Below, in pieces: positions 99 to 31,232 of a stretch of DNA of 64,000 nt. The DNA is from Pseudomonadales bacterium (GTDB lineage: Bacteria > Patescibacteriota > Microgenomatia > UBA1400 > PJMF01). The DNA lies in assembly GCA_020632265.1 (NCBI GenBank), contig JACKFW010000001.1, positions 75,785 to 139,784 of the forward strand. Reading direction: 5' to 3'. The translations under genes were made by a program, and so were the position numbers. Under the pieces are notes generated by a model. That model ran no database searches and was not told the DNA's origin. It saw only the letters and a program-made list of their open reading frames with translations. Within the stretch, counting starts at the first letter, position 1. Each line of letters opens with the position of its first letter.

Positions 99-3000
99 TT
101 ACTTCAAATTCTCAAAACTTACATTCGAATCATCATCAACGTCAAACTTAATATATGAAACAAAAGAGTCGTTGTCTGAAAGGTTAGCAAAATAATGCGT
201 TTTCTTGTCCTGATCATATTTGTATTGATATTTACTTTCTCGCGTTATCTCAGTTTCATCATTTTGATTTAATACAAGTTCTCTATTACTGGTAACAATA
301 TATTTATTTATATTCGGGAACTCAGCAAACTTTTTTTCAAGCTCATGTACGAAGTTACTCTCTTCTTCTGTATTTTGCCAGTTCAAATTAGTTGCAATCA
401 CAAATATGTTCTTAATATCTGGCAATTTCTCTATTTCGAGGAAAGAATTGTAGAGAAAGAGTTTTTGATTCGCATCAGCTTGGGAGTTTTCATCCAAGTC
501 TAAAAATATAAAATAATCCTTTTGAGTGAAAAAGTTATGATAGCTAGATTTATATAATTTGGTATTGAGTAGGTCGTAGTTTCCGGCGTTATACAGAATT
601 GGATAATCGACTAAGTTGCCAAAGTTTTGATCAAAATAAGCCATCCAGGAGGCTTCGGTAACATGAATTGGATCGCCGGTTAGAATTAAGAAGTCATTTG
701 TGCTTTTATTTAAACCTGCATTATTTAGATTTTTGATAAAGGATTTAGTCGTGTAAGGTAGTTTGGCTGGATCATTTTGAGGATTTTTAATTGGAGCGTA
801 TCGATTATTTAAAACTGAGAACGAGTAACCATTGGATAATTTACTTGGATCTAAAGTGTTGTTATTGATTGAAGGCGGCGTTTTTGAAACTCGCTCAGCA
901 AGACTGGAAACTTTAAAGAGGTTGCATTGATCATCGCAATCAATTACTTCATAAAAAATATCGAAAGATTTTTTGAAGTTTTCAAAGTTATTTTGAAAGG
1001 TTGAATTATTTTCAATGCCGTAATCTGTAATATATAGCTCGCTATCGTTTGATAGAATATTTTTATAGCTGGTTTCAAGATTTAGTCCCTGCGAATCAGT
1101 TGCCAAATCTGCCCAAACATTTTGAGTTTGATCAAAGTAAGTTTGTTCTGGTGACAGAGGTAAAAGATCATAACTTGGTGTTTTATATAAATCGTAAGAA
1201 AAAGGGTTTATAAGAGTGATTAAATAGTATTGTTTATTTGGATTGGCAAAATATTTATTATCAAATTGAGCATTAAACCTTTTTACTAGCCAGTTTTGAT
1301 ATGCTGGTTTGTTGTTTCTGAAGTTTGTCTTAATGTTTGCAATTAGATTCATTTGGAAAATTGTGCCTAATATGGCTACTAATAAAATCAAGTGAGCGAA
1401 AACTCGATTATTTTCTTTAAATTTTATTAAAATATATGAATAAATAATTGGTAAAGTTAGCGCCAATAAAATAATTTCTAAAAATATTGAATTGGTAAGA
1501 GGTTGGCTTGTAACTGAAAACAGGTTGAAAATAAGAAAGCTGATCATTAGTGAGAAAAATTTTAGGGAATTTTGATGACTGGATTTCTTTTCTGAAGCAA
1601 TTATTTTTGAAATAATAAGATATACGATCAAAATTATTAAAATTGCCAAAGAAATATTTAGATAATAATATGTGCCAGGATCTGAATAAATTTTATAAAA
1701 TGGAACAAGTAAGAAAGAATAAAAGTTTGGATTATTTTTCAAAACTAGACCATTGTCTCTACAAACAGAAAATGCATTGATTTTTAGATAACATTTTGCA
1801 GTGACGACATTTTCGATAGCTTCGGGAGTTGTATCAAAATTTTTCAAAAGACTATTAGTGGCGTATGGGTTTTTATGAAGAGTTAAAAACAGAAGCAAAA
1901 ATGCAAGATAAAAGGTGAAATGCTTTTTGAAGTGTTTGATAATATTAAAAGTGGCATGATGTGTTTTGGAAGGATTTGAGCTTAAGGCCTTAGAATTTTC
2001 TGATTTTAAATTAGCTTTTGTGGATATAGATCCAGCTTTTATAATGATTCCTGCAAAAGCCCAAAAGGTAAAGGCAACTTTGGAAGCAGCGAAGACATCG
2101 ATGTAAGTTGCGTTGATCAGCAAGCCAATAATTGAACCAACAAAACCAATATTTAGAGCAGAAATTAACAGATCTGATTTTTTGATATTTTTATTTGCTT
2201 CAATGAGGATAATTAAGATAAAGCCATAAAATGTAATGAAGCCTAAAAATCCAGTTTCTCCAAGTGTTCTTAGAAAATTATTATCCGTTCCATCTGCTTC
2301 CGAAAACACGCCATTTTCAAGTTGAGAAAGTGCTGCGTAGCCAGAACCAGACAAAGGATTATTTGCTAGGCCCTTTAGTGCTTGTGGCCACAACTCATCC
2401 AAGCGGATTGCCATCGAAATTCCATATTTCAGAGCGTTAGCAGACCAAACACTTTTTTGTGGGATTATTTCTTTGGTTTCAGTGCCATCTTCATTAATAG
2501 TGGTTTTAATATAAAATTCATGTCCCTCTCCGAATAAATCTTCGGGTACTGTTGGATCGGAAGTTTCTGGTGAGATTGAAATTCCTGGAATTTTGGAAAT
2601 AATTTTATTTGCAGTTTCATTTCTTTGAGCAATGGATAAAAGTGCGGATTCTGTTTGTGCGCCAAATAAAGTAATTAATAAAGTGAAGCCAATTAGCAAA
2701 ATTACTAATGCAATTCCACCCCAGCGAAGTTTTTGCCTAAAATTCTTTAATTTTCGTAAATTTAGATAAATTACTGCGAGTAACCCTACAAAATAGGCGA
2801 AAAGAGCCGTTTTTGAGCCACTAGTAATGAGCATCCAGGCGCCGAGCGCATGGGTTAGGTGCAAAATAAGTTTAAAAGCGACTGCTTTGCTAGTTAGAGC
2901 TTTTTGCTTTTTGAGTTTTTTGAGCGGCATTAAACTGATTGCAAAAATTAGTGGTAGAACGATTACGAGATAGGCTGCTAAATCATAGTGACCGGCAAAA

Positions 3001-3596
3001 GTGGATTGAGGTCGGGCATTTTCCTGTAGATAAAGTTTTTCACCTTTGGAATATTCTCTATTCATCGTTGAGTACAATGGAAAATGCATATATTTTTGAC
3101 CAAAGCCATAACCGACAATTCCTAGTAAGGTGATTAACAAAGTGACAACAATAATTTTTAAATGTTGTTTGGTTTTGACTGCAGAATATAAGAAAAAGAA
3201 TAAAGTGAAGTATTCAATATATCTGAAATAATGAAGAGCACTTTTTCCAATATGAATTAGTTCAAAAGGAATGGACTGCAAAAGTGTGGCGCTGATAAGT
3301 ATTGTAGTGAAACCAGCGAATAAATAAGTTAAAACTATCCAAAAATACGGCGTGTTCCAAGAAAACTTTTTTTGATAGGCATCTCTTAGCCAAACTAAAA
3401 GAGTTAGAAATATAAAGAAGTCCTCTGCTCTAACACGGACAATATATCCAGGTAAAATATCAAGGATGGGAATTTTAGGAAATAATGGAATGAAAGCTAG
3501 CAAAAAAGTGCTTGAAACAAACAAAAGATTTGTATTCAGCCAAACAAAGAATTGTTTAGATTTTGACCAAATTATGATATTTTTGATTTTTTTCAT
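99..3596 (-). CDS. Large membrane protein with an N-terminal O-antigen ligase (Wzy_C/WaaL-like) domain fused to a second TM block and a ~430 aa C-terminal soluble domain
   Basis: 1165 aa. N-terminal ~520 aa has >=10 predicted TM helices and O-antigen-ligase family motifs: 'ITSGSKTALFAYFVGL' (the conserved SRG/SKT loop) and 'DNNFLRTLGETGFLGFITF' (H/N-N-x-x-L-x-x-x-x-E-x-G-x-x-G). A second hydrophobic block follows (residues ~560-740), then a hydrophilic Asn/Asp-rich C-terminal domain. Confidence 0.6.
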   Translation of the reverse strand: MKKIKNIIIWSKSKQFFVWLNTNLLFVSSTFLLAFIPLFPKIPILDILPGYIVRVRAEDFFIFLTLLVWLRDAYQKKFSWNTPYFWIVLTYLFAGFTTILISATLLQSIPFELIHIGKSALHYFRYIEYFTLFFFLYSAVKTKQHLKIIVVTLLITLLGIVGYGFGQKYMHFPLYSTMNREYSKGEKLYLQENARPQSTFAGHYDLAAYLVIVLPLIFAISLMPLKKLKKQKALTSKAVAFKLILHLTHALGAWMLITSGSKTALFAYFVGLLAVIYLNLRKLKNFRQKLRWGGIALVILLIGFTLLITLFGAQTESALLSIAQRNETANKIISKIPGISISPETSDPTVPEDLFGEGHEFYIKTTINEDGTETKEIIPQKSVWSANALKYGISMAIRLDELWPQALKGLANNPLSGSGYAALSQLENGVFSEADGTDNNFLRTLGETGFLGFITFYGFILIILIEANKNIKKSDLLISALNIGFVGSIIGLLINATYIDVFAASKVAFTFWAFAGIIIKAGSISTKANLKSENSKALSSNPSKTHHATFNIIKHFKKHFTFYLAFLLLFLTLHKNPYATNSLLKNFDTTPEAIENVVTAKCYLKINAFSVCRDNGLVLKNNPNFYSFLLVPFYKIYSDPGTYYYLNISLAILIILIVYLIISKIIASEKKSSHQNSLKFFSLMISFLIFNLFSVTSQPLTNSIFLEIILLALTLPIIYSYILIKFKENNRVFAHLILLVAILGTIFQMNLIANIKTNFRNNKPAYQNWLVKRFNAQFDNKYFANPNKQYYLITLINPFSYDLYKTPSYDLLPLSPEQTYFDQTQNVWADLATDSQGLNLETSYKNILSNDSELYITDYGIENNSTFQNNFENFKKSFDIFYEVIDCDDQCNLFKVSSLAERVSKTPPSINNNTLDPSKLSNGYSFSVLNNRYAPIKNPQNDPAKLPYTTKSFIKNLNNAGLNKSTNDFLILTGDPIHVTEASWMAYFDQNFGNLVDYPILYNAGNYDLLNTKLYKSSYHNFFTQKDYFIFLDLDENSQADANQKLFLYNSFLEIEKLPDIKNIFVIATNLNWQNTEEESNFVHELEKKFAEFPNINKYIVTSNRELVLNQNDETEITRESKYQYKYDQDKKTHYFANLSDNDSFVSYIKFDVDDDSNVSFENLK

Positions 3597-3603
3597 TGCT
3601 AAT

Positions 3604-5337
3604 CTATTTTACAGCAGATTTGTGGGAATGTGGAAAGGCAATGAGTGAAGTTAAAAATAAAATACTTATAAGTGAAATAAGATCTGAAACTTTTTGAACA
3701 TTGGTTTTTTGAAGAATTAGTTTAATCGTGTGATTGCCCTTATCAACTTGGACAAGAATTGTGCCGTCATCAGCAATTTCTTTTTGAGTAATTTCATCAT
3801 CCACCGCAACAGCCCAAACTGGCAAATCCCAGACAGCTAGATTTATTTTTTGAGGTTTACTGAGAGTTAATTCAACAACCTTTTTTACATTGCCATAGGA
3901 TGGTTTGGAAGTGTGATTGATGATAACAGCGCTTCCCGTAGCATTGAGAATTATTGGACCCGGTAAGACTGGTATTTTTGTAGCAGTGATAGGCATTAGT
4001 TCCCAAGAAATATCGGTAGGACCATTAAAAGATTTTAAGTCTTGGGTGTAATCTAGATCTTGTTTCCAATCTAGAGGCCAAGGTTTTGTGTAGTTTCTAA
4101 TGTTATAAATCATTACCAATAAAATTAATGAAATAAATATCATTCTTTGTTTGCTCGCTAGCATTTGTGAAACTAGACCGATGGCAAATGAACCTACCAA
4201 TGAAGTGGCAGCTAATAATCTCCATGGAAATTGAATTAGTTGTAGCGGATAAATTATTTGCCAGACCGATCTTGAGTGTTCCGTCATTAAGAAAATGAGG
4301 ATGCAAAAAGTAATGAGGAAAATTACTAAAAGTTTTGCTTCTTTTCTTTTCTTTTTTTGGAATATTAAAATAAGGGAAATTAAAAATGAAATCAAAATTG
4401 CTAATCCCACCTGAAAAGAAACGTCATCAGTTTTAAATGATGTAGAACTGCCGTAGCCCCATGCTGAATAGATGATTTGTTTTATTGTAGACCAATGGTC
4501 GGTGTAATCGATTAATACTTCGTTGCCTATTTTTACCCAGGATTTTTCAAGCATAAATGGGAAAAAATAAAATGCTGATAGTAAAACGCCAAAAATTGTA
4601 GAGGATATTAGGGCCAAGACTTTTTGTTTTGAAAAGTTTTTGCTAAGTAAATAGAGCGCGTACGCAGACAGTGGAATAAAGAAAATGATAATTGAGAGAA
4701 GGTGCGAAGTAATAATGCCAGCAATTCCCAGAGTCAAAGGGGCGCTATTTTTGCTGAATATAGGCTGATTTTGTGATTTTCTTGCACGATCTTTCTTTGA
4801 ATCTTTAGCAGTAAATAGCTGATAAAGTCCTAAACCGATTAAGGGTGCAAACAATAAGCCATATGAACCACCGGTTTGACCCGTAACGTAAAGGGTTAGA
4901 AACCTAAAAGGGACAATTCCATATGATATTGTTGCCAGTAGAGCTGGAACTGTATCCAGATGTTTTTTCATCCATAAATAAAAGGTTTGAAGTGAGCAAA
5001 AAATCACCAAAAACTGCATTAGTTTCCAACTCAAGGTAGTGCTAAATCCTAGGCTTTGAAAAAAAGCTGAAACGTAATATGGCAGTGGATAAAAAAACTG
5101 AAAAGTTAAGTAGCCATATGAATAGGCAATTTCTGGTGTCATGCGAACCGGAAATTGGCCGCTTTTTAGTTCTGTGAAAAAATGGAATGACCTGATGAGA
5201 TGGTAATCACCGTCATGAGTGCGATACATGCCAGGTTGAGAAAATGAGTTAAATGTAATGAAGATTGAAAGAAATAGGATAATCAAGAAAGAGAGAAATT
5301 TGGCAGAATTAGTGTTTAAAAGTTTATTAATGCACAC
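3604..5337 (-). CDS. Polytopic membrane protein, candidate GT-C glycosyltransferase (YfhO-like architecture); paralog of 56990..58849
   Basis: 577 aa. N-terminal motif 'HDGDYHLIRSFHFF..GQFPVRMTPEIAYSYGYLTFQFFYPLPYYV' aligns with 'HDYTQGARIVEM...GHFPVRWSQNFGYGYGMPLFEFYAPLPYYV' of ORF 56990..58849. About 9 TM helices, an extracytoplasmic C-terminal domain, and a final C-terminal TM anchor. Confidence 0.45.
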   Translation of the reverse strand: MCINKLLNTNSAKFLSFLIILFLSIFITFNSFSQPGMYRTHDGDYHLIRSFHFFTELKSGQFPVRMTPEIAYSYGYLTFQFFYPLPYYVSAFFQSLGFSTTLSWKLMQFLVIFCSLQTFYLWMKKHLDTVPALLATISYGIVPFRFLTLYVTGQTGGSYGLLFAPLIGLGLYQLFTAKDSKKDRARKSQNQPIFSKNSAPLTLGIAGIITSHLLSIIIFFIPLSAYALYLLSKNFSKQKVLALISSTIFGVLLSAFYFFPFMLEKSWVKIGNEVLIDYTDHWSTIKQIIYSAWGYGSSTSFKTDDVSFQVGLAILISFLISLILIFQKKKRKEAKLLVIFLITFCILIFLMTEHSRSVWQIIYPLQLIQFPWRLLAATSLVGSFAIGLVSQMLASKQRMIFISLILLVMIYNIRNYTKPWPLDWKQDLDYTQDLKSFNGPTDISWELMPITATKIPVLPGPIILNATGSAVIINHTSKPSYGNVKKVVELTLSKPQKINLAVWDLPVWAVAVDDEITQKEIADDGTILVQVDKGNHTIKLILQKTNVQKVSDLISLISILFLTSLIAFPHSHKSAVK

Positions 5338-8056: not shown

Positions 8057-9331
8057 TTAAAGTTTTAATTTGTAAGTTTTCCTATATAAAATCATACTAG
8101 TAATCAGTGTAAACACTAACAGTACTACCCTACTGACTATCCTTGTCCAAGCAGCTGCTTCAAGTCCATATTCAGGTACAAAAATTGTATTTCCGATAAG
8201 TACGACAACGAGTTGTAGAATGCCACTAACTGAAAAATACCAGTTGGCTTTGAAACTAAAGAATAAAGCAATAAATGGTACTACTGCAACTGCGATGAAT
8301 GAAGATGCAGTTAACAGGTAAAGAATATTCAGGCCAGAAATATATTCCGAGCCTATGGTAAGTAATATTGATAATTTGCCAAAAGGTAAAAATAGGATAA
8401 ATCCAATTATTGAAAGAATTGCTATTGTGAAAGCTTTTTTAATAAAAGCATTAAGGTCTTCTTTGTTTTTATACTTCGCTACTCTTGGAAACAAAACATT
8501 TCCTAATGAATATGCAATTAAAGCAAACAACATGGCAATTCTAGAAACACCAGAATATAAACCCACTTCATAGGAACTTAGATATTTTTGCAAATATAGA
8601 ACATCAATATTATCGATGAAGCCAGTTGCGATTAAACCTACGGCAGAATGTTTAGCAAGCATTAAAATTTTACTTTGCAATTTAGAATTATGAATCTTAA
8701 AATTTATCCTAGTATCTTTTGTTACAAACTTTTTCCAAAAAAGTACTGGCACTAAAGGAGCGGCAATATACCAAGTAAAAGTAATAAGTGATGAGGTAAT
8801 TCCAGTTATTAAGAGCGCTAAAGCCCATACCAATTTAGTAATTGCCTGAATAATATTAATAAATATTGCTTGATTAAATCTTTGCAAAGATTGCAGGGTA
8901 TTTAATAAATGTTCGTAATAAACAGTCGAGATCCCAATTGTTAGAGCAACCAAAATAATTAAAGGATCAGAAAAATTGAAAACTTTACTGATTGCACCTG
9001 AAAAGAAAATTCCGATTAAGATGATAAAGAATGAAATCAATAATTTATATTTAAGAGTAAATGAATAGATAAAGTTCTTCTCTTCCGTTTTTTCATTCTC
9101 AGAGCCATATCTTAAAATGGCGTTATTGAATCCGAGATCGTTAATTTTAGTTAAAATCATCACAACTGCAAATCCCACTGAAAATTCACCAAATTTCTCT
9201 GGACCCAAAACTCTTGAATAAATCATTAAAGCAATGGCTGAGATACCAGTAGCAAAAGTACTGCCAAATAGGGTTTTGACTGATTGTAGAAGGCCGTCGG
9301 AGGCAAAGATGAGTTTTATTTTTTTATGCAT
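8057..9331 (-). CDS. wzx: Wzx-like oligosaccharide flippase (polysaccharide biosynthesis protein, MOP superfamily)
   Basis: 424 aa, ~12 TM. N-terminus 'TGISAIALMIYSRVLGPEKFGEFSVGFAVVMIL' matches the Polysacc_synt signature (R-x-L-G-P-E-x-F/Y-G). Confidence 0.7.
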   Translation of the reverse strand: MHKKIKLIFASDGLLQSVKTLFGSTFATGISAIALMIYSRVLGPEKFGEFSVGFAVVMILTKINDLGFNNAILRYGSENEKTEEKNFIYSFTLKYKLLISFFIILIGIFFSGAISKVFNFSDPLIILVALTIGISTVYYEHLLNTLQSLQRFNQAIFINIIQAITKLVWALALLITGITSSLITFTWYIAAPLVPVLFWKKFVTKDTRINFKIHNSKLQSKILMLAKHSAVGLIATGFIDNIDVLYLQKYLSSYEVGLYSGVSRIAMLFALIAYSLGNVLFPRVAKYKNKEDLNAFIKKAFTIAILSIIGFILFLPFGKLSILLTIGSEYISGLNILYLLTASSFIAVAVVPFIALFFSFKANWYFSVSGILQLVVVLIGNTIFVPEYGLEAAAWTRIVSRVVLLVFTLITSMILYRKTYKLKL

Positions 9332-9394: not shown

Positions 9395-10159
9395 ATGATA
9401 TATAAATATAAAGAGTTGTTATCTGAATTGACTAAAAGAGAAATTAAAGCTCGTTATAAGCAATCCGTATTGGGTTATGCCTGGGTTATTCTAAATCCAT
9501 TCTTCCAAATGTTGGTGATGGCGTTTGTTTTTTCAAAAATTTTAAGAATTACCGATTTGGGTGTGCCCTATGCCCTTTTTCTATATGTAGGACTACTTCC
9601 TTGGAATTTGTTTGCTGCATCTATTACTAGTAGCATGAACTCTCTTGTTGGAAATGGCTCACTACTAACCAAAATTTATTTCCCTCGAGAAATTTTTGTA
9701 ATTAGCACTATTCTAGCCAAGATAGTTGATTTTTTATTGGCATCAATAGTTTTGGTAATATTCTTTATATTTTTCCATCAGCAAGTCACGTTAAATATTT
9801 TCTGGATACTTCCAATATTCCTGATTCAGCAACTATTTACTTTTGGTCTGTCGTTGGTTTTGTCGGCCTTTAATTTGTTCTATAGAGATATTCAGTACCT
9901 CTTTGGTTTGATTTTACTCACGTGGATGTATATTACGCCAGTCATTTATCCTACTGAAATGTTTCCAGAGCAGTATCGATGGATTTTCAAATTAAATCCG
10001 ATGGCAATATTTATCAATGCCTATCGTCAAGTTATGTTGGGCGGCGGCTTGCCAAACTTTACAAGTTTGGGAATAGCTTTGGGACTTTCTCTAGTTATGG
10101 TCGTTATAGGGTATAAAATATTTAAAAATCTAGAAGGGATGTTTGCCGATGTCGTCTGA
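9395..10159 (+). CDS. wzm: ABC-2 type polysaccharide/teichoic-acid exporter permease (Wzm/TagG-like)
   Basis: 254 aa, 6 TM. N-terminus 'LTKREIKARYKQSVLGYAWVILNPFFQMLV' is the hallmark of Wzm/KpsM/TagG permeases. Its 3' end overlaps the downstream ATPase gene. Confidence 0.8.
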   Translation: MIYKYKELLSELTKREIKARYKQSVLGYAWVILNPFFQMLVMAFVFSKILRITDLGVPYALFLYVGLLPWNLFAASITSSMNSLVGNGSLLTKIYFPREIFVISTILAKIVDFLLASIVLVIFFIFFHQQVTLNIFWILPIFLIQQLFTFGLSLVLSAFNLFYRDIQYLFGLILLTWMYITPVIYPTEMFPEQYRWIFKLNPMAIFINAYRQVMLGGGLPNFTSLGIALGLSLVMVVIGYKIFKNLEGMFADVV

Positions 10160-10880
10160 CGTAGCTATTTCCATCCAGCATGTTTCTAAGCTTTTTAGAA
10201 AGCAGAACCAGAGAACTTTTAAGGAATTAATTCCTGCTTTATTTGGTGGAAAAAAAGTAGCTGAGTCTTTTTGGGCTTTGAAAGATATTGATCTAGAAAT
10301 TAAAAAAGGTGAAACTATTGGAATAATTGGTGTGAATGGTTCGGGCAAGTCTACTTTGCTTAAGTTAATCGCAGGTGTCTCACAGCCCACAAAGGGCAAG
10401 ATAACTACTGTTGGCAGAATGGCACCCTTGATTGAATTAGGAGCTGGTTTTCATCCAGAGTTAACAGGCAGAGAGAATGTTTATTTAAACGGGATTATCT
10501 TGGGAATGACTAGAGCCGAAGTTGATGCCAAATTCAAAGAAATTGTTGATTTTGCAGAGATTTGGGATTTTATTGATCAGCCAGTAAAGCATTATAGCTC
10601 AGGGATGTACTTAAGATTAGCTTTTGCAGTCGCAATTCACACTGAACCAGAGATTTTATTGATTGATGAGATCTTGGCTGTCGGAGATACTGCTTTCCAA
10701 GCAAAGTGTTTTAAAAAGATGGATGAGTTTAAGAAAAATAAGGTTGCTATTATGTATGTGAGTCATAATATGGATTCGGTTAGAACTTTTTGTGATAAGG
10801 TGTTATATATTGATGATAATAAAATGGCTGAATTTGGTAAAAAAGATCTGGTGCTAGATCAATATCTTAGTAAAATATAA
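10143..10880 (+). CDS. wzt: ABC transporter ATP-binding protein (Wzt/TagH-like), short form without a C-terminal carbohydrate-binding domain
   Basis: 245 aa. Walker A 'GIIGVNGSGKSTLLKLIAG', ABC signature 'YSSGMYLRLAFA', Walker B 'LLIDEILAVGD'. The annotated start at 10143 is a TTG; an in-frame ATG lies at 10149. The gene overlaps the wzm stop, consistent with translational coupling. Confidence 0.9.
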   Translation: MPMSSDVAISIQHVSKLFRKQNQRTFKELIPALFGGKKVAESFWALKDIDLEIKKGETIGIIGVNGSGKSTLLKLIAGVSQPTKGKITTVGRMAPLIELGAGFHPELTGRENVYLNGIILGMTRAEVDAKFKEIVDFAEIWDFIDQPVKHYSSGMYLRLAFAVAIHTEPEILLIDEILAVGDTAFQAKCFKKMDEFKKNKVAIMYVSHNMDSVRTFCDKVLYIDDNKMAEFGKKDLVLDQYLSKI

Positions 10881-10889
10881 GGAATTATT

Positions 10890-11567
10890 ATGAATTTAGA
10901 AGATAAAATAAAAAAAGCTAAGGAAATAATTCTAGAAGCTAGTAAAAAATGGGATCACGATAAAATTGCAATTGCTTGGACCGGAGGTAAAGATTCTACA
11001 GTTATTCTTCATATTGTTAGAGAGATGTTTGATGGTAAAGTTCCGTTTAAGTTGATGTTTAATGATTCAACTTTAGAGTTTCCAGAAATATATGATTTTA
11101 TAAGAAAATATGAAAAAGAATGGGATTTGGATTTGTTGTGGATTAAGCATCTTCCAGAAGATCTTAAAATTTATGAGACTTCATCGAATAAAGAAGAGCA
11201 AATGGAGATTTTGAGAATTGCTAAAATTAATGCATTAAACTTCGCTCTTAAGGAATATGACCTCAAAGCATTTATGTCTGGAATTAGGTGGGATGAACAT
11301 GAGGCGAGAAGTGATGAAAAAGCATTTTCTAAAAGATCTTCTCATATGAGAGTTCATCCTATTTTGCAGTTCACAGTTGATGATATCTGGAATTATATTC
11401 GAATGTTTAATGTACCTTACGTAGATCTTTATGATAAGGGATATAAGTCATTGGGTGAAATGCCATTTACTAGTCCAGTTGATGATCCAAATGCTTCAGA
11501 AAGAGCTGGAAGAGATGCAACAAAAGAAAGAGTCATGAAAAGATTGAGGGATTTAGGATATTGGTAA
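10890..11567 (+). CDS. PAPS-reductase-family PP-loop ATP pyrophosphatase-like protein (no catalytic C-terminal Cys motif)
   Basis: 225 aa. PP-loop 'IAWTGGKDSTVILHIV' (SGGKDS). C-terminal family block 'GIRWDEHEARSDE...HPILQFTVDDIWNYI...YVDLYDKGYKSLGEMP'. Lacks the 'ECG(L/I)H' Cys of true CysH reductases. Confidence 0.7.
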   Translation: MNLEDKIKKAKEIILEASKKWDHDKIAIAWTGGKDSTVILHIVREMFDGKVPFKLMFNDSTLEFPEIYDFIRKYEKEWDLDLLWIKHLPEDLKIYETSSNKEEQMEILRIAKINALNFALKEYDLKAFMSGIRWDEHEARSDEKAFSKRSSHMRVHPILQFTVDDIWNYIRMFNVPYVDLYDKGYKSLGEMPFTSPVDDPNASERAGRDATKERVMKRLRDLGYW

Positions 11568-11571
11568 AGAT

Positions 11572-13140
11572 ATGACAAAACATGTCTATCTAGTCTCTAT
11601 TGATGCACTTCGATTTGATTGTGTGCCTTATCAACAAGATAAAAGCTTTTTAAAAAAACATCGTGTTCTAAAATATCTTAAAATACCAACTTTAGAAAAA
11701 TTAACAAAAAAAAGTCTAAATTTTGAACTTGCGACTACAACGGCACCCTATACATCTGCTTCGCACGCTAGTTTGTTTACTGGCCTATATCCTCCCAGAA
11801 CTAACGTTAGATCTTTTTTTAATCCATCTTCTAGTTCATTAAATAAAAATTTAATTACTTTAGCTGAAGTATTTAAGTCTGAGGGATATAAAACTGTTTT
11901 TGCAACCGATGAAGAGTCTGTGTTTAAACCTTTAGATCTACATAGGGGCTTTGATTACTTTTTTCCAATTAACGATGATAAATTAATTTCATTTATTAAA
12001 AAAAATAAAAATGAAAAAATCTTTGTTTTTAAACATTTTTTAGATGTTCACAATCCTTACCTATACACGAGATATAGTTATAAAAAGGATGTAAATAACG
12101 ACTATGAAAAGTTTATTAGTAAAAAAATTAATAAGAAAGTAAAACTAAAAACAAATTTAAATTATTATGATTCATGGAGAAAAGTTTACGGAGGAAAAAA
12201 TAATAACATTAAATCTTTATTCCCCTTGTATGTGAAAGGAATAACTAAGTTTGATCAAGGTAGATTTAAATATTTTATCGAAAATCTAGAGAAAATGGGA
12301 GAGTTTGAAGAATCTTTATTTGCTTTTTTTGCAGATCATGGCGAAGGTAGGACAGATAAAAATGGCTTTTTTGCTCATGGAGGTGATTTATATGATGATG
12401 CAGTGAGAATTCCTTTGTTTTTAATTCATAAAGATATTCATAAAGTAAAGAATGATAAGCGTCTTGTTTCTCTAATAGATATTTTTCCTACGATAACTAA
12501 TTTTGTTTTTGGGGATGATGTTTTCTTCTATCCTAAATATAATCTTGATGGCATTGATTTGCTTAATTTTACTAATACTCATAGATATACATACTCTGAA
12601 GTATGGAAATCAAATATAATAAATCCTTTGGAATATCCAGATAATAAAGATTGGTTACTTTCAGAGAGATGTATTAGAACAAAAAATAAAAAATTTATTT
12701 TGAAAGGAAAGCCAGAAGTGTTTTTGATTTCGAATGATGATGCTCGATTTAGTCAAGGTGATATCGGTAAATATATATTAACTGAATTTAGCAATAAAGG
12801 AGTCAACCTCTCTTTTAAAGATGGGTCGTTAATTCAAGCATTGAAAGACGCAATTAGAATCTTCAATGATCGAATGACCAAATATTATGATCTAAAAAAG
12901 GACAGATGGGAAGAGAATCCAGATAATATATTACGAAATAATTATGGCTTTAAGAATAAAATATTGGTTTGGTACTTTATTAAAGCAATATATAACATTG
13001 ATAAAACAATATTAATAAATGATGAAGCTATTGCTAAATTAATTAATGATCGATTATATAACATAATTATTCGTATAAACATGAATGAAATAAATTTAAA
13101 AAATAAATTTAAGGATTTGTTGGGAAAATATTTGGCATAA
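11572..13140 (+). CDS. Alkaline-phosphatase-superfamily enzyme, type I phosphodiesterase/nucleotide pyrophosphatase (NPP)-like, cytoplasmic
   Basis: 522 aa, no signal peptide or TM. 'VYLVSIDALRFD' (metal site 1, compare NPP 'iSfDGfRyD'). 'TTTAPYTSASHASLFTGLYPPRTNV' (T-nucleophile-x-P-x-x-T...H-x-S-x-x-T-G-x-Y-P, compare NPP 'TfPnhysivTGlyPesHG'). Distal 'FADHGEG...FAHGG' (DHG/HGG metal ligands). Confidence 0.65.
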   Translation: MTKHVYLVSIDALRFDCVPYQQDKSFLKKHRVLKYLKIPTLEKLTKKSLNFELATTTAPYTSASHASLFTGLYPPRTNVRSFFNPSSSSLNKNLITLAEVFKSEGYKTVFATDEESVFKPLDLHRGFDYFFPINDDKLISFIKKNKNEKIFVFKHFLDVHNPYLYTRYSYKKDVNNDYEKFISKKINKKVKLKTNLNYYDSWRKVYGGKNNNIKSLFPLYVKGITKFDQGRFKYFIENLEKMGEFEESLFAFFADHGEGRTDKNGFFAHGGDLYDDAVRIPLFLIHKDIHKVKNDKRLVSLIDIFPTITNFVFGDDVFFYPKYNLDGIDLLNFTNTHRYTYSEVWKSNIINPLEYPDNKDWLLSERCIRTKNKKFILKGKPEVFLISNDDARFSQGDIGKYILTEFSNKGVNLSFKDGSLIQALKDAIRIFNDRMTKYYDLKKDRWEENPDNILRNNYGFKNKILVWYFIKAIYNIDKTILINDEAIAKLINDRLYNIIIRINMNEINLKNKFKDLLGKYLA

Positions 13141-19263: not shown

Positions 19264-22125
19264 TTATCCTTTATTTTTTTTAAATATAATTATTAAGCAT
19301 GTTCCTATTGAAATCAGTGAAATTATTTTACCAATATAAAATACTGTTGGTTCGTATTTCATTTCTACTTTAATATTGTGTCCAGCTGGCAAATTAAATC
19401 CTCTGAATGCTAGGTTTACTGGATCAATTTTACCCTTAACTCCATTCATATAGATATTCCAACCAGGGTAATATGCATCTGATAATACTCCATACTGTGG
19501 TTGAGAACTTGAATATTTAAAACTCAATTGATTATCTTCGAAAGAAGATTCTGAAATTATAACCTGAGTTGGGTCAAAATCTTGATTTTCATTATTAATT
19601 CCATCTACAATCGCAATATCTGTAATTTCTTTTCTATATTCATTCATCAACTTTATAATGTTTTCGTATTCAACATCAGAGTTATTTTTACCTATGAAAA
19701 TAGTCTTTTTTACAAAATGTAATCTTGGGACAGCTTGTTTATTCTCATAGATATTCATTAAATCACTATTAATTAATTGATATTTTTGATTAATTTGCAT
19801 TTGTTCATTGTCCCAGATAAATCCTCCCCACCCACTTTGATCATATGAGTTATCGCCGTTTGGATCTGTGATTAATTCCAAATCAAAAGAATATGATTCA
19901 TCTGACTGCGGAAAAGGTCCTAATTTCATCACAGACCATTTTTGATCATCTCGATTATTTGCTGGATCAATTCGAACAGTTTGAAAATCGATTATGTATT
20001 TATCATATATAACTTTAGCAGCAAAAGTAACACCATTTCCTTTGTTAATATTAAATATACCGGGAGAAATGGCTGGATATAAATATAAAAACTTTGCACC
20101 AATAGGTTTAATGATTTTGGCAGCGTCATCTCCAGGAGCGTGTTGAAATAATATATTTTTTGATTCATTTCCAATTTGGAAAGATGAAGCTACTATGTTA
20201 GAATCATTTTTTTTGTTTTTTAAAAAAGTTTCAATAATGTTATTATTGATTAATTTAGATTCTATATCTCCATATGAAATTATGTATTTTACTGACATTA
20301 GATCAAAATAAGGATTGTCAATTAAATTTGCTGATTTTGTGGCGTTGTGCTCTCTAATACCAGTTAATTGAAGAGAATTAGGTTCTGCAAAAAATTCTTT
20401 TATGTAATAGAAATATCTGTCTGGCCATATGGCATCCAATATTCTAATATCATTAAGATCATAAATTGTGGAAAGATTTGGGAACAAAATATGGTCTAAG
20501 CCAAAAATTCTAAATTCTTTATAGTTCTTATTTAGCAAATATGTAAAAGAGGGAGGCTCTCTAAAACTATCTCTTCTCATTTGATCTCCATCTTTAGGAA
20601 AATAAATATATGCTTCTATTAATGCAAGGCATAAAAGGATGTAAGCTATGTGTTTTTTATTTCTTAAAAATATTAATATTGATGTAATAATGAAAACAAT
20701 TATTAGAGCGTAAAATGCATTTGCGCTTATAAAACCAAAATATTTTTTAATATAATGACTTGATAAAATTACATCTTGATAATAATTATTAGCAAAAAAT
20801 ATTGCGTACGAAATAAATAATCCAGATAGTAGCAATACATAATTTCTTTTTTTAAATACCTGATTTAAAAAGATTACTACAGTAGATATCATGGAGAAAC
20901 CAATTAAACTTGAACTATATTTGGTAAAAATAGTTTGTTTGAAGACAGGTAATTTTTCAAAGAAGAAAAAATGAATAATTCCATATTGTTGTAATAGTAA
21001 AACTAACGACAATATCCAAAAGAATAACAGTATTAATATCTGGCTATTATTCTTAATTTTCTTAATCCAAAAAATAAAAGTGCTGCTACATATTATATAT
21101 AAATAAGAAATAATAACTCCAACATGATTTACTGATGCAATGTGAAAATCAATCTTTGTAAGATATTCAGACACATTTCTTAGAGCAAAAAATTCTGGCA
21201 TAGCTAGAAATATAACGTTTTTCCAACTAACAGATTTTGGATTTATTCCAGATACATGCGTGGTAACTCCATTAGAAAGAAATTCGAGTCCTGGCAAGTA
21301 AATAATTGCTCCAATTCCAAGACCAAGTAATAAAATAAATAATCCATATAGAAAATATTTTAAACTATTATTTTTCAAATAAAAAAATGATAAGAATGTT
21401 GAATATAAACCTACGAAAAAAAGTACAAATATACTAGATTCTGGCATACCCCCGAGCATTGATAAACCTAATAGTATTCCAGTTAAACCTATCCACTTTG
21501 GATTTTTATTGAAATATAATTTATTTATTCCCCAAGCAATAAAAGGAATTAGAATGTCAACATTGTGATGAGCGATATTTGGAAGATAAATAAAATATCC
21601 TATAGAAAAATATGATAGACCGGCAAACCATGACAATTCTTTAGATATTTTAAAACTTCTAATAAACAAAAACATACCAATAGAGGCAATAATATATCTA
21701 GTAACAAAAAAAAGATCTAAAAATAGTAAGTTCTTTGTTATTGAGAATAAAATTGAAAATGGCATCAGTGGCAAATAGAATACAGTTGACTGAAAATTAG
21801 CTACCAATGGAAAGCCAACGCCTATATTTTGGCTCCATTTTGGTATTTTTAAATCAAACATTTGCCTGGAACTTTCCATCCAATGAGGCGGGTGTTGCCA
21901 AACATATGCTCCTGGGTCAATCATTGTTTTGCAATACTCATTAAATTTAATGCCTTCTTGCTGAAAAGGCGTGTTCCCTCCCATTACACCATTGGCACAT
22001 TCAAATCCAAATGATTTTCCAAAAAATACATTGAAATAAAATATTAAAGGCAACAAAACAGCTACAATAATTTCTAAGAGAACAGTTTTTTTATGTTTAT
22101 TAAAAAATTTTGACATTATGCTCAA
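19264..22125 (-). CDS. Large (953 aa) polytopic membrane protein, YfhO-like GT-C glycosyltransferase candidate
   Basis: ~13 TM in the N-terminal 520 aa, then a ~380 aa extracytoplasmic domain and a single C-terminal TM anchor ('IISLISIGTCLIIIF'). This architecture matches YfhO-family lipid-linked glycosyl transferases; the family assignment is by architecture and weak motif memory only. Confidence 0.4.
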   Translation of the reverse strand: MSIMSKFFNKHKKTVLLEIIVAVLLPLIFYFNVFFGKSFGFECANGVMGGNTPFQQEGIKFNEYCKTMIDPGAYVWQHPPHWMESSRQMFDLKIPKWSQNIGVGFPLVANFQSTVFYLPLMPFSILFSITKNLLFLDLFFVTRYIIASIGMFLFIRSFKISKELSWFAGLSYFSIGYFIYLPNIAHHNVDILIPFIAWGINKLYFNKNPKWIGLTGILLGLSMLGGMPESSIFVLFFVGLYSTFLSFFYLKNNSLKYFLYGLFILLLGLGIGAIIYLPGLEFLSNGVTTHVSGINPKSVSWKNVIFLAMPEFFALRNVSEYLTKIDFHIASVNHVGVIISYLYIICSSTFIFWIKKIKNNSQILILLFFWILSLVLLLQQYGIIHFFFFEKLPVFKQTIFTKYSSSLIGFSMISTVVIFLNQVFKKRNYVLLLSGLFISYAIFFANNYYQDVILSSHYIKKYFGFISANAFYALIIVFIITSILIFLRNKKHIAYILLCLALIEAYIYFPKDGDQMRRDSFREPPSFTYLLNKNYKEFRIFGLDHILFPNLSTIYDLNDIRILDAIWPDRYFYYIKEFFAEPNSLQLTGIREHNATKSANLIDNPYFDLMSVKYIISYGDIESKLINNNIIETFLKNKKNDSNIVASSFQIGNESKNILFQHAPGDDAAKIIKPIGAKFLYLYPAISPGIFNINKGNGVTFAAKVIYDKYIIDFQTVRIDPANNRDDQKWSVMKLGPFPQSDESYSFDLELITDPNGDNSYDQSGWGGFIWDNEQMQINQKYQLINSDLMNIYENKQAVPRLHFVKKTIFIGKNNSDVEYENIIKLMNEYRKEITDIAIVDGINNENQDFDPTQVIISESSFEDNQLSFKYSSSQPQYGVLSDAYYPGWNIYMNGVKGKIDPVNLAFRGFNLPAGHNIKVEMKYEPTVFYIGKIISLISIGTCLIIIFKKNKG

Positions 22126-22145: not shown

Positions 22146-23714
22146 TTATTTCTTTAAATATATTATTGCACTACCAATAACATGTGGTGTATTATCAAAT
22201 TCGAAATAGTTTATTCTGTCATTAATAAACTTTGATTTTTCATCTTCATTAATAAATATAGAATTAGAATTAAGAACCATTAGTTTTACATTATTTTTTC
22301 CACTATATTTTAATGATTTTAAGAACCTTAAATCGTTTATAGGTATATAAAATTTATCCATTATCGCCATTCTTTCGGAATAGTATGGAATTGATGAATC
22401 CCAGTCATACCCGTAAATTAATGATATATCATTTTTATTTATACTGGTTTTGATAAATCTACTAATAATGTGAATGTCGGGGCTCATTGTTTTTTGAACT
22501 GGTAAAAAATAATTATAGTATCTTTGGTAAGATAGTATAATTATTAATTGAAATAAAATTATTCCAAGGAATTTTTTATAAGTATTTGATTCTTCTAAGT
22601 AATATAGTATGTTTAAGCTAAGACCAAGAATTAGAAAAAACAAATTTGCATAGAAGTAGTAGCTATGTGTAAAAAAAAGATTAGTAAAAAATATTGGGCC
22701 AATTAGAAAAAATAGATATAAAAATAAAGAATTATTTTTATATTTTGACTTTACCAATAAGGGGATTGTTAATAAAACAAAAACTAAAATTAATATGGTT
22801 ATATTTGAATATTCAAATAAGTTTGAAAAGGTGTGAATGCCTATTTGATTCCAAGTTGATAGAGAAAATTTTTGAGATAATGTACCAAAATTCCATTTTG
22901 TAAGAGCTCCGGAAGTTATAAAGTTAGCCGCCAATGGATTCATATTTTTAACTACATCTGTGTGTTTGATCCATGAGATACCTATTAGAAGTGGTGCTCC
23001 AAATATTATAATACCAGTTTTGATATATCTCCATATATTTTTTAAAAAAATCTGTCCTTTATATTTGTCTGAATAAGTTTTTAATAAATATACGAATGTT
23101 GGAAAGCAAAATATTATAAATGTGGTTATTTTTGTTAATGCTCCAAAAATTCCAGCCATTATTGTTAGAAATAAGATTCTTTTATCATTATTTTTTATAA
23201 AATAAATAGATCCGGTTAAAAATGAAATAGAGAAAAAGAACGCAGTAGATTCCATCATGAATGATCTTGACCAAAATATGTACATTGGATTAGCCAGAAA
23301 TAAAGAAATTGGAATTAGTATAAATATTTTCTTCTTTATAAAATTACTTAACAGGTAATAAATAATAAATATTGATGAATAAAAAAAGAAAATACTTACC
23401 AAGCGTCCTGATTGATCTAAGCCAATGCCAGTTGTATCTGCAAAAATAGCCACCAGTCCCTGATAGGTTGGGAACTCCAAGGGTATAGACCATGGAGCAC
23501 CTAAAACCGGTGTGATGTAATCGATCTTTAAGCCATCTTTCAACAAATAAAATGCTGATATTGCTGTCTGAGTTTGTCTAAACCCGTACATATTAATTAT
23601 GTCATTTTCAAATCCTGTAAATATCTGTACAAAACTTAAAGAAAGAATTACAATAAAGAATATTAAAATATATGAATCTATAAATTTTGATAAAATAGTA
23701 TTCTTTTCTTTCAT
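22146..23714 (-). CDS. Polytopic membrane protein, GT-C-like glycosyltransferase candidate
   Basis: 522 aa, ~11 TM. N-terminal loop 'YGFRQTQTAISAFYLLKDG...LGAPWSIPLEFPTYQG' resembles the conserved first periplasmic loop of GT-C enzymes; no specific family recognised. Confidence 0.35.
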   Translation of the reverse strand: MKEKNTILSKFIDSYILIFFIVILSLSFVQIFTGFENDIINMYGFRQTQTAISAFYLLKDGLKIDYITPVLGAPWSIPLEFPTYQGLVAIFADTTGIGLDQSGRLVSIFFFYSSIFIIYYLLSNFIKKKIFILIPISLFLANPMYIFWSRSFMMESTAFFFSISFLTGSIYFIKNNDKRILFLTIMAGIFGALTKITTFIIFCFPTFVYLLKTYSDKYKGQIFLKNIWRYIKTGIIIFGAPLLIGISWIKHTDVVKNMNPLAANFITSGALTKWNFGTLSQKFSLSTWNQIGIHTFSNLFEYSNITILILVFVLLTIPLLVKSKYKNNSLFLYLFFLIGPIFFTNLFFTHSYYFYANLFFLILGLSLNILYYLEESNTYKKFLGIILFQLIIILSYQRYYNYFLPVQKTMSPDIHIISRFIKTSINKNDISLIYGYDWDSSIPYYSERMAIMDKFYIPINDLRFLKSLKYSGKNNVKLMVLNSNSIFINEDEKSKFINDRINYFEFDNTPHVIGSAIIYLKK

Positions 23715-28966: not shown

Positions 28967-29638
28967 TCATTTTCTAAAATACCAAATAGGAATTTTAATT
29001 AAAACTTTGAAAGCATCAAGTAAGGTCATTCCCGATTTGTCATCTAAATAGGTGGTATTAATTTTAATTTCAGAAAAAGGAAGATCTAGTCTTCCAATCT
29101 TGGTGGCGATTTCGGTTTCTACTCCATAATTTGAAGCACTCCATTCCAATTGCTTATAAAGGCTTAAATTCATTCCAAAAAATCCACAAAGTAAATCATG
29201 TCTCTTGATACCAAAAAGAATATGGACTACTTTTCTAACAATAAAATTTCCAACTTTCCGGATTAGCGGAACATTTTCTTTTAATAATCTATACCCAAAG
29301 ACCAACTGGTCTTTTTTGAGAGCTTTTTCGAATTGAGGTAATAGCTTAGGGTCATGTTGTCCATCCGCATCAATGAAAATTACAGATTGAGAATTGTTCT
29401 TAAATGCCTTCTCAATTCCCGTTTTCATTGCCTTACCTTTTCCCATATTAATTTTGTGAAATACAAGTGAAATTTGAGAATTTTCAGAAAAATTATTGTT
29501 TAACAAATCTCTGCTCATTTGATTTGAACCATCATCAACCACGATTACAGGATTTTTTGAAAACTCAAGAATTTTATTTATAGTTTTTACTGCTCTATTA
29601 CCCTCATTATAAGTAGAGACGATGATGCTAATTTTCAT
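28967..29638 (-). CDS. GT2 glycosyltransferase, DPM1/GtrB-like
   Basis: 223 aa. 'KISIIVSTYNEGNRAVKTINKIL...IVVDDGSNQMS', 'VIFIDADGQHDP'. Confidence 0.75.
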   Translation of the reverse strand: MKISIIVSTYNEGNRAVKTINKILEFSKNPVIVVDDGSNQMSRDLLNNNFSENSQISLVFHKINMGKGKAMKTGIEKAFKNNSQSVIFIDADGQHDPKLLPQFEKALKKDQLVFGYRLLKENVPLIRKVGNFIVRKVVHILFGIKRHDLLCGFFGMNLSLYKQLEWSASNYGVETEIATKIGRLDLPFSEIKINTTYLDDKSGMTLLDAFKVLIKIPIWYFRK

Positions 29639-31232
29639 TTTTTATTGATAATTTATATAAGTTGCAACTTCCAAAACAACCTTCTGATACTAATTCAGTT
29701 TCGAAGATATCTTCAATATTTTGGTAGTCTTTTTTCCAAACATCAGTACTTGCGTAATAATTTGAGATATATATATTTTTACCATCATTCATTAAATTAA
29801 GGTATTCATCAATCAAGCTTTTATTATAAAAATATTTTAGAACATCTTTTTCACTCGATGAAAATTCTTGATAAAGACTAATGGGAAGATAATTGTATTT
29901 ACCAAATGAATTAATTTCAATATAAAAAGGTGGTAAAAAAGTAGCTAGATAAGAGTTAGATTCGTTGATATTATCATTAAAGTTTTGTACCGCCAAATAA
30001 TTCCAAGGGGTTTCTTGATATTTAAAGTTAATCATTATCTGATTTTTCAAAGAAATAAGATTATTAACATTAAGATGAGGTCCTTGCTTTGTAATTAGCA
30101 AGCTAAATAATATTATAAAAAATGCAATTGCAGAAGATTTGCCGGCAGATTTAATCTTAGCAAATTGATTTAAAAATAAGACAAATCCTAGTATTAGTGG
30201 AATAACCAAAGTCATAATGTATCTTGAATCTGCATAGTAAAAAAATGACATAAAGCCAATATTTAATGCAATAAAAATACCAAAATAACTTATTAAATTG
30301 CGTTTGTTATTATTTAAATATGACCATATTAAACCAATCACACCAGTTACTGCAAAAAATTTATTAAACAACAACTCTTGATACCACAAAAATCTGGCGT
30401 TTGAGCCCATCAAACCGTTTACATAAAAATTTAGATTTGTTTTAAACGATTCAATGTTAAAACTTGTTTCGCTGGATAGGTTTGCATGCCCAAATAAAAT
30501 ATTTGTCTTCAAAACAAAAAAGACAAATATCATTACTGAAATAATTGAATTTATCAAGTATGTTGATAGTACATTAACTTTGTTATTAAGGATAACTTTT
30601 ATCAAAAAGCTAAGATGAAATGCCAAAGCAAGTGGTAAATTTGAAAACTTAGTCAATAAGAGCAGTAGTCCCACATATCCAGAAAATATCGAGTTTATTT
30701 TAGAATTTTTTGTGGCTAATAAATAAAATGAAAGCATTACTAATGTGAGCGTTAAGTTTTCGGCCATTAATAAAGATGGCAAGTTATAAATATGGAAGGT
30801 GGTCGCATAAATCAAACCACCGGATAAAATATATAAAGATTTATTAATTCTTTTTTTTGAAAAAGTTGAAATAATTTTTATAAACAAAAATAAACTGAAA
30901 AATCCTAAAGCTTGGTTTGCAAAATAAAACATTCTGAAATCATTTTTAATAAAATAAAAAGGAATAAGAAAAATGGAATATAGGGGTGGCACCATACTTT
31001 TAATTTCATGACCATAAGTCATCATTTTAAACTCATTGCCTTTTATAAAATTAATTGCGGGAATAGAATAAAAAAGCGTATCAGGGAAAGGTTCTAAATT
31101 CGGTATTAGTGATCTAACAGAAAAAGGATCTTTAAAAGAAAGCGCAAAGTATACAATAAATACTATTATTGCTGCTATCTGAATGGAATACTTTTTTATA
31201 TATCGATACAACTTCAAAAGAACAGCTTTCAT
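29628..31232 (-). CDS. ArnT/PMT_2-like GT-C membrane glycosyltransferase (divergent; lacks the canonical DE dyad)
   Basis: 534 aa, >=11 TM. First loop 'PDTLFYSIPAINFIKGNEF...PPLYSIFLIPFYF' parallels the ArnT 'DEaryaeiA..ml..G.......kPPL.yW' region. Confidence 0.45.
   Translation of the reverse strand: MKAVLLKLYRYIKKYSIQIAAIIVFIVYFALSFKDPFSVRSLIPNLEPFPDTLFYSIPAINFIKGNEFKMMTYGHEIKSMVPPLYSIFLIPFYFIKNDFRMFYFANQALGFFSLFLFIKIISTFSKKRINKSLYILSGGLIYATTFHIYNLPSLLMAENLTLTLVMLSFYLLATKNSKINSIFSGYVGLLLLLTKFSNLPLALAFHLSFLIKVILNNKVNVLSTYLINSIISVMIFVFFVLKTNILFGHANLSSETSFNIESFKTNLNFYVNGLMGSNARFLWYQELLFNKFFAVTGVIGLIWSYLNNNKRNLISYFGIFIALNIGFMSFFYYADSRYIMTLVIPLILGFVLFLNQFAKIKSAGKSSAIAFFIILFSLLITKQGPHLNVNNLISLKNQIMINFKYQETPWNYLAVQNFNDNINESNSYLATFLPPFYIEINSFGKYNYLPISLYQEFSSSEKDVLKYFYNKSLIDEYLNLMNDGKNIYISNYYASTDVWKKDYQNIEDIFETELVSEGCFGSCNLYKLSIKNEN

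Follow-up and report, generated by a model that had tools for sequence, protein, structure and literature searches.

A Wzy_C/WaaL-fold transferase of Patescibacteria fused to two degenerate enzyme-like parts, and its short paralog

WaaL, the O-antigen ligase (GT121), is known from C. metallidurans (7TPG/7TPJ) and E. coli. O-antigen ligases carry two Arg and a His, whereas SEDS proteins and nearly all families of Wzy-type polymerases hold an Asp or Glu at the position of that His (Meitil et al. 2024, PMC10920833). Wzy-type polymerases (GT122-135) act with a separate Wzz, and SEDS proteins (RodA/FtsW) with bPBP partners. There are precedents for an extra domain of the same pathway on a Wzy_C protein, namely Brucella WadA, which joins GT121 to GT25 (PMC10920833), and WsfB and PglL, which extend Wzy_C with a C-terminal TPR (PMC2943079). 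TacL, the lipoteichoic-acid ligase of S. pneumoniae, is a Wzy_C enzyme for a glycolipid-anchored polymer in a host without lipopolysaccharide (LPS) (PMC5727136). Here we analyse a stretch of 64,000 nucleotides (the window; contig JACKFW010000001.1 of assembly GCA_020632265.1) from a patescibacterial metagenome-assembled genome (MAG), and in particular one gene, at 99..3596 on the minus strand, whose 1165-aa product fuses a Wzy_C/WaaL-fold module to two further parts. We think it fairly probable that this protein has a single active part, a polymerase-like transferase of glycans carried on polyprenyl diphosphate, and that two pseudo-enzymes give it an outer platform without catalytic function.

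The fusion departs from each of these systems. Compared with WaaL, it has an invariant Asp in place of the His and, in its long forms, a Lys at the first Arg; its outer loop is about 70 residues longer, there are 635 extra C-terminal residues, no sequence-level match to a solved WaaL was obtained, and its host lineage is not known to make LPS. Where the Wzy-type polymerases and SEDS proteins rely on separate partners, the fusion, whose polymerase activity is putative, has its accessory module in cis, apparently a decayed GT-C enzyme and a decayed phosphoesterase that are unrelated to Wzz or PBPs. The additional domain of WadA is an active glycosyltransferase (GT) of the cytoplasmic type and the TPRs of WsfB and PglL are protein-binding repeats, neither being a GT-C remnant or a phosphoesterase fold. 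Unlike the fusion, TacL, compared by description, is a single-domain protein of 397 aa. Inactive metallophosphoesterase (MPE) folds occur in GAP50, Vps29 and the B subunits of DNA polymerases alpha, delta and epsilon, which are eukaryotic proteins of the cytosol or the inner-membrane complex, and none of these is fused to a GT. Bimodular Wzy_C enzymes are already known, and what is of interest here is the proposed pseudo-enzyme platform and a pair of paralogs, with what they may say about an envelope polymer of Patescibacteria; in the literature on Wzy_C with a metallophosphoesterase, and on O-antigen ligases in Patescibacteria or the Candidate Phyla Radiation, we found no paper on such an architecture.

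The open reading frame (ORF) runs from an ATG start through 1165 codons to a stop codon at 99-101, in DNA with a local GC content of about 30%. A preliminary description of the gene, made from the window alone, had delimited it correctly, leaving only the strand unnamed. The fusion ORF is real and conserved. The identical 1165-aa protein is found in three independent assemblies, the NCBI MAG, there on a contig of 1.08 Mb, and the Logan assemblies of SRR12358676 and SRR28385529; at least 100 homologs of 960-1270 aa share 30-55% identity with it over 90-100% of the query, and at least 20 further full-length loci were present among GTDB species representatives. These observations rule out, for practical purposes, a frameshift or an assembly error that joined two or three genes, an artefact against which the preliminary description had cautioned for the case of two, and we give it next to no chance. 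Nothing was found in its support; a linker at aa 531-559 is poorly conserved and of lower pLDDT. Long forms have other long forms as their nearest neighbours, apart from the short forms described below. An AlphaFold (AF2) model of the full-length protein, with 65 homologs as input, had a mean pLDDT of 89 and a pTM of 0.83. Scanning the whole protein against NCBIfam produced no match, to a ligase model or any other, and a promoter and terminator scan around the gene stayed at chance level.

Three evolutionary parts make up the protein, aa 1-530, aa 560-905 and aa 906-1165. Hydropathy and AlphaFold secondary structure place 12 transmembrane (TM) helices in aa 1-530, then a Lys-rich linker, five TM helices in aa 560-748 and about 410 hydrophilic residues. 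This last region contains 13.3% Asn and 7.7% Asp, partly because the genome has about 30% GC. The fusion of a ligase-like domain with a second membrane module of 4-5 TM helices and an Asn/Asp-rich C-terminal region had thus been recognised correctly from the start, whereas the hydrophilic region, formerly taken as one domain, consists of two separable ones, aa 758-905 and aa 906-1165. Conservation is very uneven along the chain: 117 of the 530 columns of the N-terminal module are at least 90% conserved, against 5-6 in each C-terminal module, and mean identity is 49% in the former and 26-30% in each of the latter. The C-terminal parts are fast-evolving.

In the predicted topology of 17 helices, with the N-terminus set inside as in WaaL, the conserved catalytic loops all lie outside, as do a 66-aa loop after TM13 and the entire C-terminal 417 residues. 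The linker between the first two parts (aa 531-559; 1920..2006, minus strand), with 6 K/R in 29 residues and no conserved columns, is predicted to face inward, into the cytoplasm. Short predicted inner loops contain 23 K/R versus 7 in short outer loops, and two invariant Cys pairs, C602/C612 and C887/C891, have all four Cys in predicted outer segments. From this charge bias, the location of the Cys residues and the signal peptides found on stand-alone relatives of the phosphoesterase-like domain (see below), both C-terminal parts are predicted to be extracytoplasmic.

The N-terminal module (aa 1-530; 2007..3596, minus strand) is a conserved and presumably catalytic glycan transferase module of 12 TM helices with the Wzy_C/WaaL fold (GT-C_B). 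Its motifs score against the family model, as the preliminary description had proposed: Pfam Wzy_C (PF04932) matches aa 250-456 (2229..2849, minus strand) over HMM positions 4-148 of 149, with 45.3 bits (E 1e-11) against a gathering cutoff of 31.7 bits, and precomputed matches to PF04932 exist for at least 100 homologs. The module shows the features of the WaaL-type GT-C_B fold, with about 12 TM helices, a large outer loop and similarity to 7TPG/7TPJ, and WaaL is its closest solved structure. It matches neither SEDS nor any named Wzy family in Pfam or NCBIfam; there is no hit to Pfam FTSW_RODA_SPOVE, and the 10-TM fold of SEDS proteins (FtsW/RodA) is not its best structural neighbour. Against PDB sequences, the family profile returned only a weak match to Mre11/SbcD (E 0.26) and no solved WaaL, and the N-terminal module alone returned nothing at E<=10.

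Because direct comparisons with E. coli WaaL (EcWaaL) were not significant, residues were mapped indirectly through the Pfam Wzy_C model, in which EcWaaL 205-354 corresponds to HMM positions 6-146 and query residues 250-456 to positions 4-148. In these coordinates, EcWaaL R215, the first diphosphate-binding Arg, falls on K262 (codon 2811..2813, minus strand), and the acceptor-activating His (EcWaaL H338; H313 in 7TPG) falls on D438 (codon 2283..2285, minus strand). The motif register agrees, with H-N-E-I-I-E-A-G-S-L-K-G-L-M-G in EcWaaL facing D-N-N-F-L-R-T-L-G-E-T-G-F-L-G in the query, and both hhalign and hmmsearch paired TQTR215AT with SGSK262TA. The second diphosphate-binding Arg (EcWaaL R288) is assigned by motif only to R398 (codon 2403..2405, minus strand), where G-I-R-L-D-x-L-W resembles G-A-R288-L of EcWaaL. 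R398 and D438 belong, respectively, to the invariant motifs WSxNALKYGxSMxIRLDxLWP and TDNN of the large extracytoplasmic loop (aa 311-439; 2280..2666, minus strand). Both residues are invariant in 120/120 long-form homologs, and the Asp at 438 is also present in 18/18 short paralogs; position 262 is a Lys in 106 of the 120 long forms and an Arg in all 18 short paralogs examined. The His that defines WaaL is therefore replaced by an invariant Asp, the type of residue found there in Wzy-type polymerases and SEDS proteins, for which reason the label "O-antigen ligase" is not justified. By the same Asp/Glu distinction the module appears polymerase-like rather than ligase-like; the preliminary description was right to place it among the enzymes of the Wzy_C/WaaL fold.

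Profile comparisons identify the middle part, aa 552-907, as a shortened paralog of a stand-alone family of about 540 aa (513-584 aa), which we call X. An exhaustive phmmer search with aa 756-1165 resolved this region into two units, the first of which (~758-900) matches the extreme C-terminus of many proteins of 513-584 aa. When the whole query was used, X proteins matched twice, through their first ~125 residues to 555-670 and through their last ~230 to 670-900, and hhalign of X (64 proteins) against the fusion family gave Prob 100 and E 2.8e-55 over 343 columns, spanning fusion residues 552-907. The homology is certain, although it does not extend over the full X profile of ~530 positions. 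The fusion shares the aligned segment with X, including its C-terminal C-x3-C domain, and lacks profile positions ~160-345 (~185 central positions, with the motifs TKYA, FLW and FYxxDxRY). It also lacks the conserved E-P-x-P-D: the invariant first-loop motif of X, N-L-E-P-x-P-D, a putative catalytic acidic motif of GT-C enzymes, falls on variable columns (586-592) in the fusion family. The five TM helices with the 66-aa outer loop that contains C602/C612 (aa 560-757; 1326..1919, minus strand) are homologous to the first ~160 residues and the later TM part of X, and what we call domain A (aa 758-905; 882..1325, minus strand), a small alpha/beta domain predicted to be extracytoplasmic and bearing the invariant C887-x3-C891, corresponds to the C-terminal soluble domain of X. 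Together with domain A, the second membrane module of the preliminary description is a truncated copy of an X-family protein rather than a novel module.

Family X is probably a family of PMT_2-like GT-C glycosyltransferases, to judge from its profile matches. It has no Pfam family of its own; among its 64 members, two match PMT_2 (best 3.6e-7), one matches DUF2079, six match the NCBIfam model "LA_3751/LA_3752 family putative glycosyltransferase" and one matches WsfD, and the X profile weakly matches the bona fide PMT/PMT_2 proteins of the window. A full-length X member of 534 aa with the motif NLEPFPD is encoded in the window outside the fusion gene (29628..31232, minus strand; E 9.4e-134 in hmmsearch with the X profile) and serves as a comparator. 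This X gene adjoins two small GT2 genes (28234-28935 and 28967-29638, both on the minus strand), a layout typical of side-chain glycosylation systems that combine a polyprenyl-phosphate-sugar synthase with a GT-C enzyme.

Motif comparison characterises the last part (aa 906-1165; 102..881, minus strand) as a degenerate MPE-fold domain. It has the four-layer alpha/beta-beta/alpha sandwich of this fold, and the inactive folds of GAP50, Vps29 and polymerase B subunits are among its structural neighbours. Pfam Metallophos (PF00149) scores 16.0-16.2 bits at aa 957-1051 (E 0.015), under its gathering cutoff of 21.5, and matches 9/21 relatives at E<=0.1 (best 3.3e-7). Set against the canonical active set, DxH / GD / GNH[DE] / H / GH / GHxH, the query has N931-x-Y933 at motif I, retains G974-D975 at motif II, reads G1005-N-Y-D1008 at motif III, with Tyr for His, and has lost the His of motifs IV (T1069) and V (S-N-R1105); motif VI is not identifiable. 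The motifs LTGDPIH and NAGNYD quoted in the preliminary description are present exactly as given, Tyr included, and they were aptly called reminiscent of metallophosphoesterases without matching them. As D975 and N1006 are the only alignable metal or catalytic residues left, catalytic processing is unlikely in this protein; of the binding or processing domain once suggested for the outer face, the outward orientation agrees with the predicted topology.

Among 120 family members, the motif-I His is absent from all, with F or Y instead, and the motif-I Asp occurs in only about 15 distant members. GD is nearly invariant, GN is common and is followed by Y, F or H, and about half of the members keep the His of motifs IV and V. 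Overall, 5 of the 260 columns of the domain are conserved. The nearest stand-alone relatives, typically ~350 aa long in a family of ~310-410 aa, begin with a signal peptide and end in a C-terminal TM anchor, and their motifs, GHxY / GD / GNH[DE] / SH / GDxG, are non-canonical yet well conserved. These secreted phosphoesterase-like proteins include, by their labels in our listing, P0147, P0148, P0174, P0175, P0218, P0228, P0230, P0243, P0191 and P0132.

One genome was scanned for each GTDB species, and at least 563 of these species-level genomes contained relatives of the fusion, including those of Paceibacterota/Pacebacteria, Woesebacteria, Microgenomates, Falkowbacteria and the "Patescibacteria group". 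A short paralog, with 531-612 aa and a match restricted to aa ~14-520, is present in many genomes besides the long form; several have both on one contig, often 10-13 kb apart. The query genome has it as a 573-aa Wzy_C protein encoded ~9.5 kb beyond the window start (L001:22989-23498), on the same strand as the fusion. Short forms retain all the invariant residues of the long forms, and the sole systematic difference that we found is Arg versus Lys at position 262. Identity is 49% between long forms, 54% between short forms and 43% between the two types, and the nearest neighbour of every sequence is of its own type; this reciprocal outgroup pattern points to an old duplication with both copies retained. 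Short forms were also noted at the loci listed as L058, L062 and L083, among others. In several related loci (L014-L021 and L048) the tblastn match ranges span 4.2-5.2 kb (6001 to ~10200-11200), as compared with a gene of 3.4 kb; L019 and L020 have a Wzx-like ORF inside this range, and ranges of such length probably join segments from neighbouring genes.

Members of the family are labelled in databases as "O-antigen ligase family protein", "metallophosphoesterase family protein", "YfhO family protein" or hypothetical, and current annotation is misleading on function. Many patescibacterial MAGs, including the source of the window, are deposited as "(uncultured) Pseudomonadales bacterium", one of them as isolate HK-STAS-PATE-17, and this naming is evidently a taxonomic mislabel, one that looks systematic.

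The 64-kb window consists almost wholly of genes for glycan biosynthesis. They encode Wzx-like flippases (8057-9331 and 55499-56956), an ABC-2 exporter pair (9395-10880), two acyltransferases, several epimerases/dehydratases, many GT2/GT4 enzymes and five or more membrane GTs of the PMT/PMT_2, DUF2079 or YfhO types. Downstream of the fusion gene, a block composed of an epimerase gene on the opposite strand, a PMT_2 gene (~510 aa), two consecutive GT4 genes and then ruvC is kept in 14/17 related loci, the conserved glycan locus adjoining ruvCAB; the upstream side is variable. A 577-aa ORF with no Pfam match (3604-5337, minus strand) ends 7 nt before the start codon of the fusion and was considered as an obligate partner, yet we rejected it, for it adjoins the fusion in just 1 of 17 related loci and occurs in 2 of them. 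The window showed no genes for lipid A or the core, and Patescibacteria are not known to have LPS. The preliminary remark that the acceptor of such an enzyme is an open question in an organism of this kind stands.

In the reading that we favour, of a single polymerase-like transferase with a non-catalytic platform, aa 1-530 would be a WaaL/Wzy-type glycosyltransferase working at the outer face of the cytoplasmic membrane. Its donor would be a glycan on polyprenyl diphosphate, assembled by GT2/GT4 enzymes that the locus encodes and moved across the membrane by the neighbouring Wzx-like flippase or ABC-2 exporter. K262 and R398 would hold the diphosphate and the invariant D438 would act as a base that activates the acceptor hydroxyl, and the reaction would be chain extension of a conserved envelope glycopolymer. 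A polymerase-like reaction is favoured over that of a classical O-antigen ligase on account of the carboxylate at the His site and a conservation that is SEDS-like, as tight as in enzymes whose donor and acceptor never change. The middle part would be a probable GT-C copy stripped of its central helices and of the acidic motif of loop 1, and the last part an MPE fold stripped of most metal ligands. Both would lie outside the membrane, stabilised by the two conserved Cys pairs, and would form a platform that scaffolds the acceptor, the growing chain or a partner protein beside the catalytic loop. Binding of one of these is the most likely role for the platform, given that GT-C enzymes bind their acceptors through periplasmic domains and that WsfB and PglL carry TPR extensions, to which it would be analogous. 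The analysis establishes the fusion itself, the folds, the lost motifs, the pattern of conservation, the synteny and the pair of paralogs; we infer the residue roles, the type of donor, the preference for a polymerase, the topology and the binding function; the flippases, the ABC-2 exporter, the GT2/GT4 enzymes, the epimerases and the GT-C proteins of the locus, together with the conserved downstream block, were counted in favour of this reading.

Several points weigh against it. Comparisons with E. coli WaaL by hhalign and hmmsearch did not reach significance and aligned only the TQTRAT/SGSKTA stretch. The correspondence of His to Asp was obtained from Pfam coordinates and motif register, not from superposition, and holds if the last ~18 model positions are free of indels. 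The closest solved structure is WaaL and there is no Wzy-type polymerase chain among the PDB matches listed, a result that does not discriminate between the two activities. The identification of X as a GT-C family involves weak matches (hhalign Prob 25% and 2.6%), and the scaffolding or binding role of the platform is one that we infer. Additionally, most main-clade relatives retain would-be metal-2 ligands (GD, GN, H, NH), and their phosphoesterase-like domain might bind metal or phosphate, or even be catalytic.

An alternative that we regard as somewhat unlikely is a terminal ligase, similar to TacL, that would take a completed glycan off polyprenyl diphosphate and attach it to a membrane glycolipid or to the cell wall, with the platform recognising the acceptor. 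In its favour, WaaL is the closest solved fold and Wzy_C ligases exist in monoderms, such as TacL (PMC5727136); the nearby ABC-2 exporter pair points the same way, a pathway of this type needing no Wzy-type polymerase, and the ancient long/short pair could be a polymerase plus a ligase. However, the acceptor-activating His is an Asp in both paralogs, which by the published distinction argues against a ligase (PMC10920833), no NCBIfam ligase model matches, and all invariant residues are common to the two paralogs, suggesting the same chemistry in both rather than two different acceptors. The enzyme might instead be an O-oligosaccharyltransferase for a surface protein (S-layer or type IV pilin), in which the platform would recognise the protein as the TPRs of WsfB and PglL do, and this we consider unlikely. 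Wzy_C is indeed found in WsaB and WsfB of Gram-positive S-layer glycosylation and in the pilin enzymes PilO and PglL, a protein-interaction motif is present at the C-terminus of WsfB and PglL, and the pathway uses a Wzm/Wzt exporter (PMC2943079). One X-family member matches the WsfD model of that same S-layer pathway, and the window contains both an exporter and a GT-C system for side chains. Nevertheless, no S-layer or pilin gene was identified beside the fusion in the loci examined, and the Pfam scan detected neither TPRs nor other protein-binding repeats. In addition, neither such high conservation nor the polymerase-like Asp is known as a feature of enzymes of the PglL type.

It is highly unlikely, in our estimation, that the phosphoesterase-like domain is an active enzyme coupled to the transferase in this protein, either recycling the released polyprenyl diphosphate to the monophosphate or trimming a phosphodiester substituent of the polymer. 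The motif-I residues are those missing or rare across the 120 members, only D975 and N1006 are left here, the 5 conserved columns in 260 are unlike those of an enzyme under purifying selection, and the set of ligands is non-canonical even in the stand-alone proteins closest to it. Residual activity is conceivable in relatives that keep GD/GNHD/H/NH, to judge from their motifs, and unlikely in the present protein.

Returning to the polymerase-like transferase with its non-catalytic platform, a broader proposal, which we offer as a tentative possibility, concerns both paralogs. They would be an ancient pair of Wzy_C polymerases in Patescibacteria of the Microgenomates/Paceibacteria type dedicated to a conserved, lineage-wide glycopolymer of the envelope, as RodA and FtsW are to peptidoglycan, and in the long member two fused dead enzymes, a GT-C and a metallophosphoesterase, would handle the chain outside the membrane in place of a separate co-polymerase or partner. 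If true, pseudo-enzymes would here have been turned into part of a polymerase/co-polymerase machine in a manner not described before. Patescibacteria account for a large share of bacterial diversity, and their cell envelopes are almost uncharacterised. The occurrence of relatives in so many genomes, the conserved locus and an N-terminal module conserved as tightly as core cell-wall enzymes suggest a conserved and as yet undescribed surface polymer. In architecture, the fusion would be a case of two different enzymes recycled as non-catalytic parts of a third, and the long/short pair with its K/R difference at position 262 offers concrete experimental handles.

Other features of the window are noted here for completeness. 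An Rfam scan of its 64 kb gave no family at threshold, not even a tRNA. Seven minus-strand ORFs of 421-655 aa have no Pfam match, several of them visibly rich in hydrophobic stretches; besides the one immediately upstream of the fusion, they are located at 22146-23714, 33606-34871, 36839-38671, 38658-40136, 45493-47460 and 56990-58849. On the plus strand, a gene for a PAPS-reductase-family protein (10890-11567) is next to one for a 522-aa protein of the sulfatase/phosphodiesterase family (11572-13140), a pair that could indicate sulfated or phospho-substituted glycans. Finally, a 953-aa ORF (19264-22125, minus strand) resembles Pfam YfhO in its last ~80 residues, which correspond to the C-terminal end of that model, and this ORF may encode another oversized membrane protein of glycosylation.

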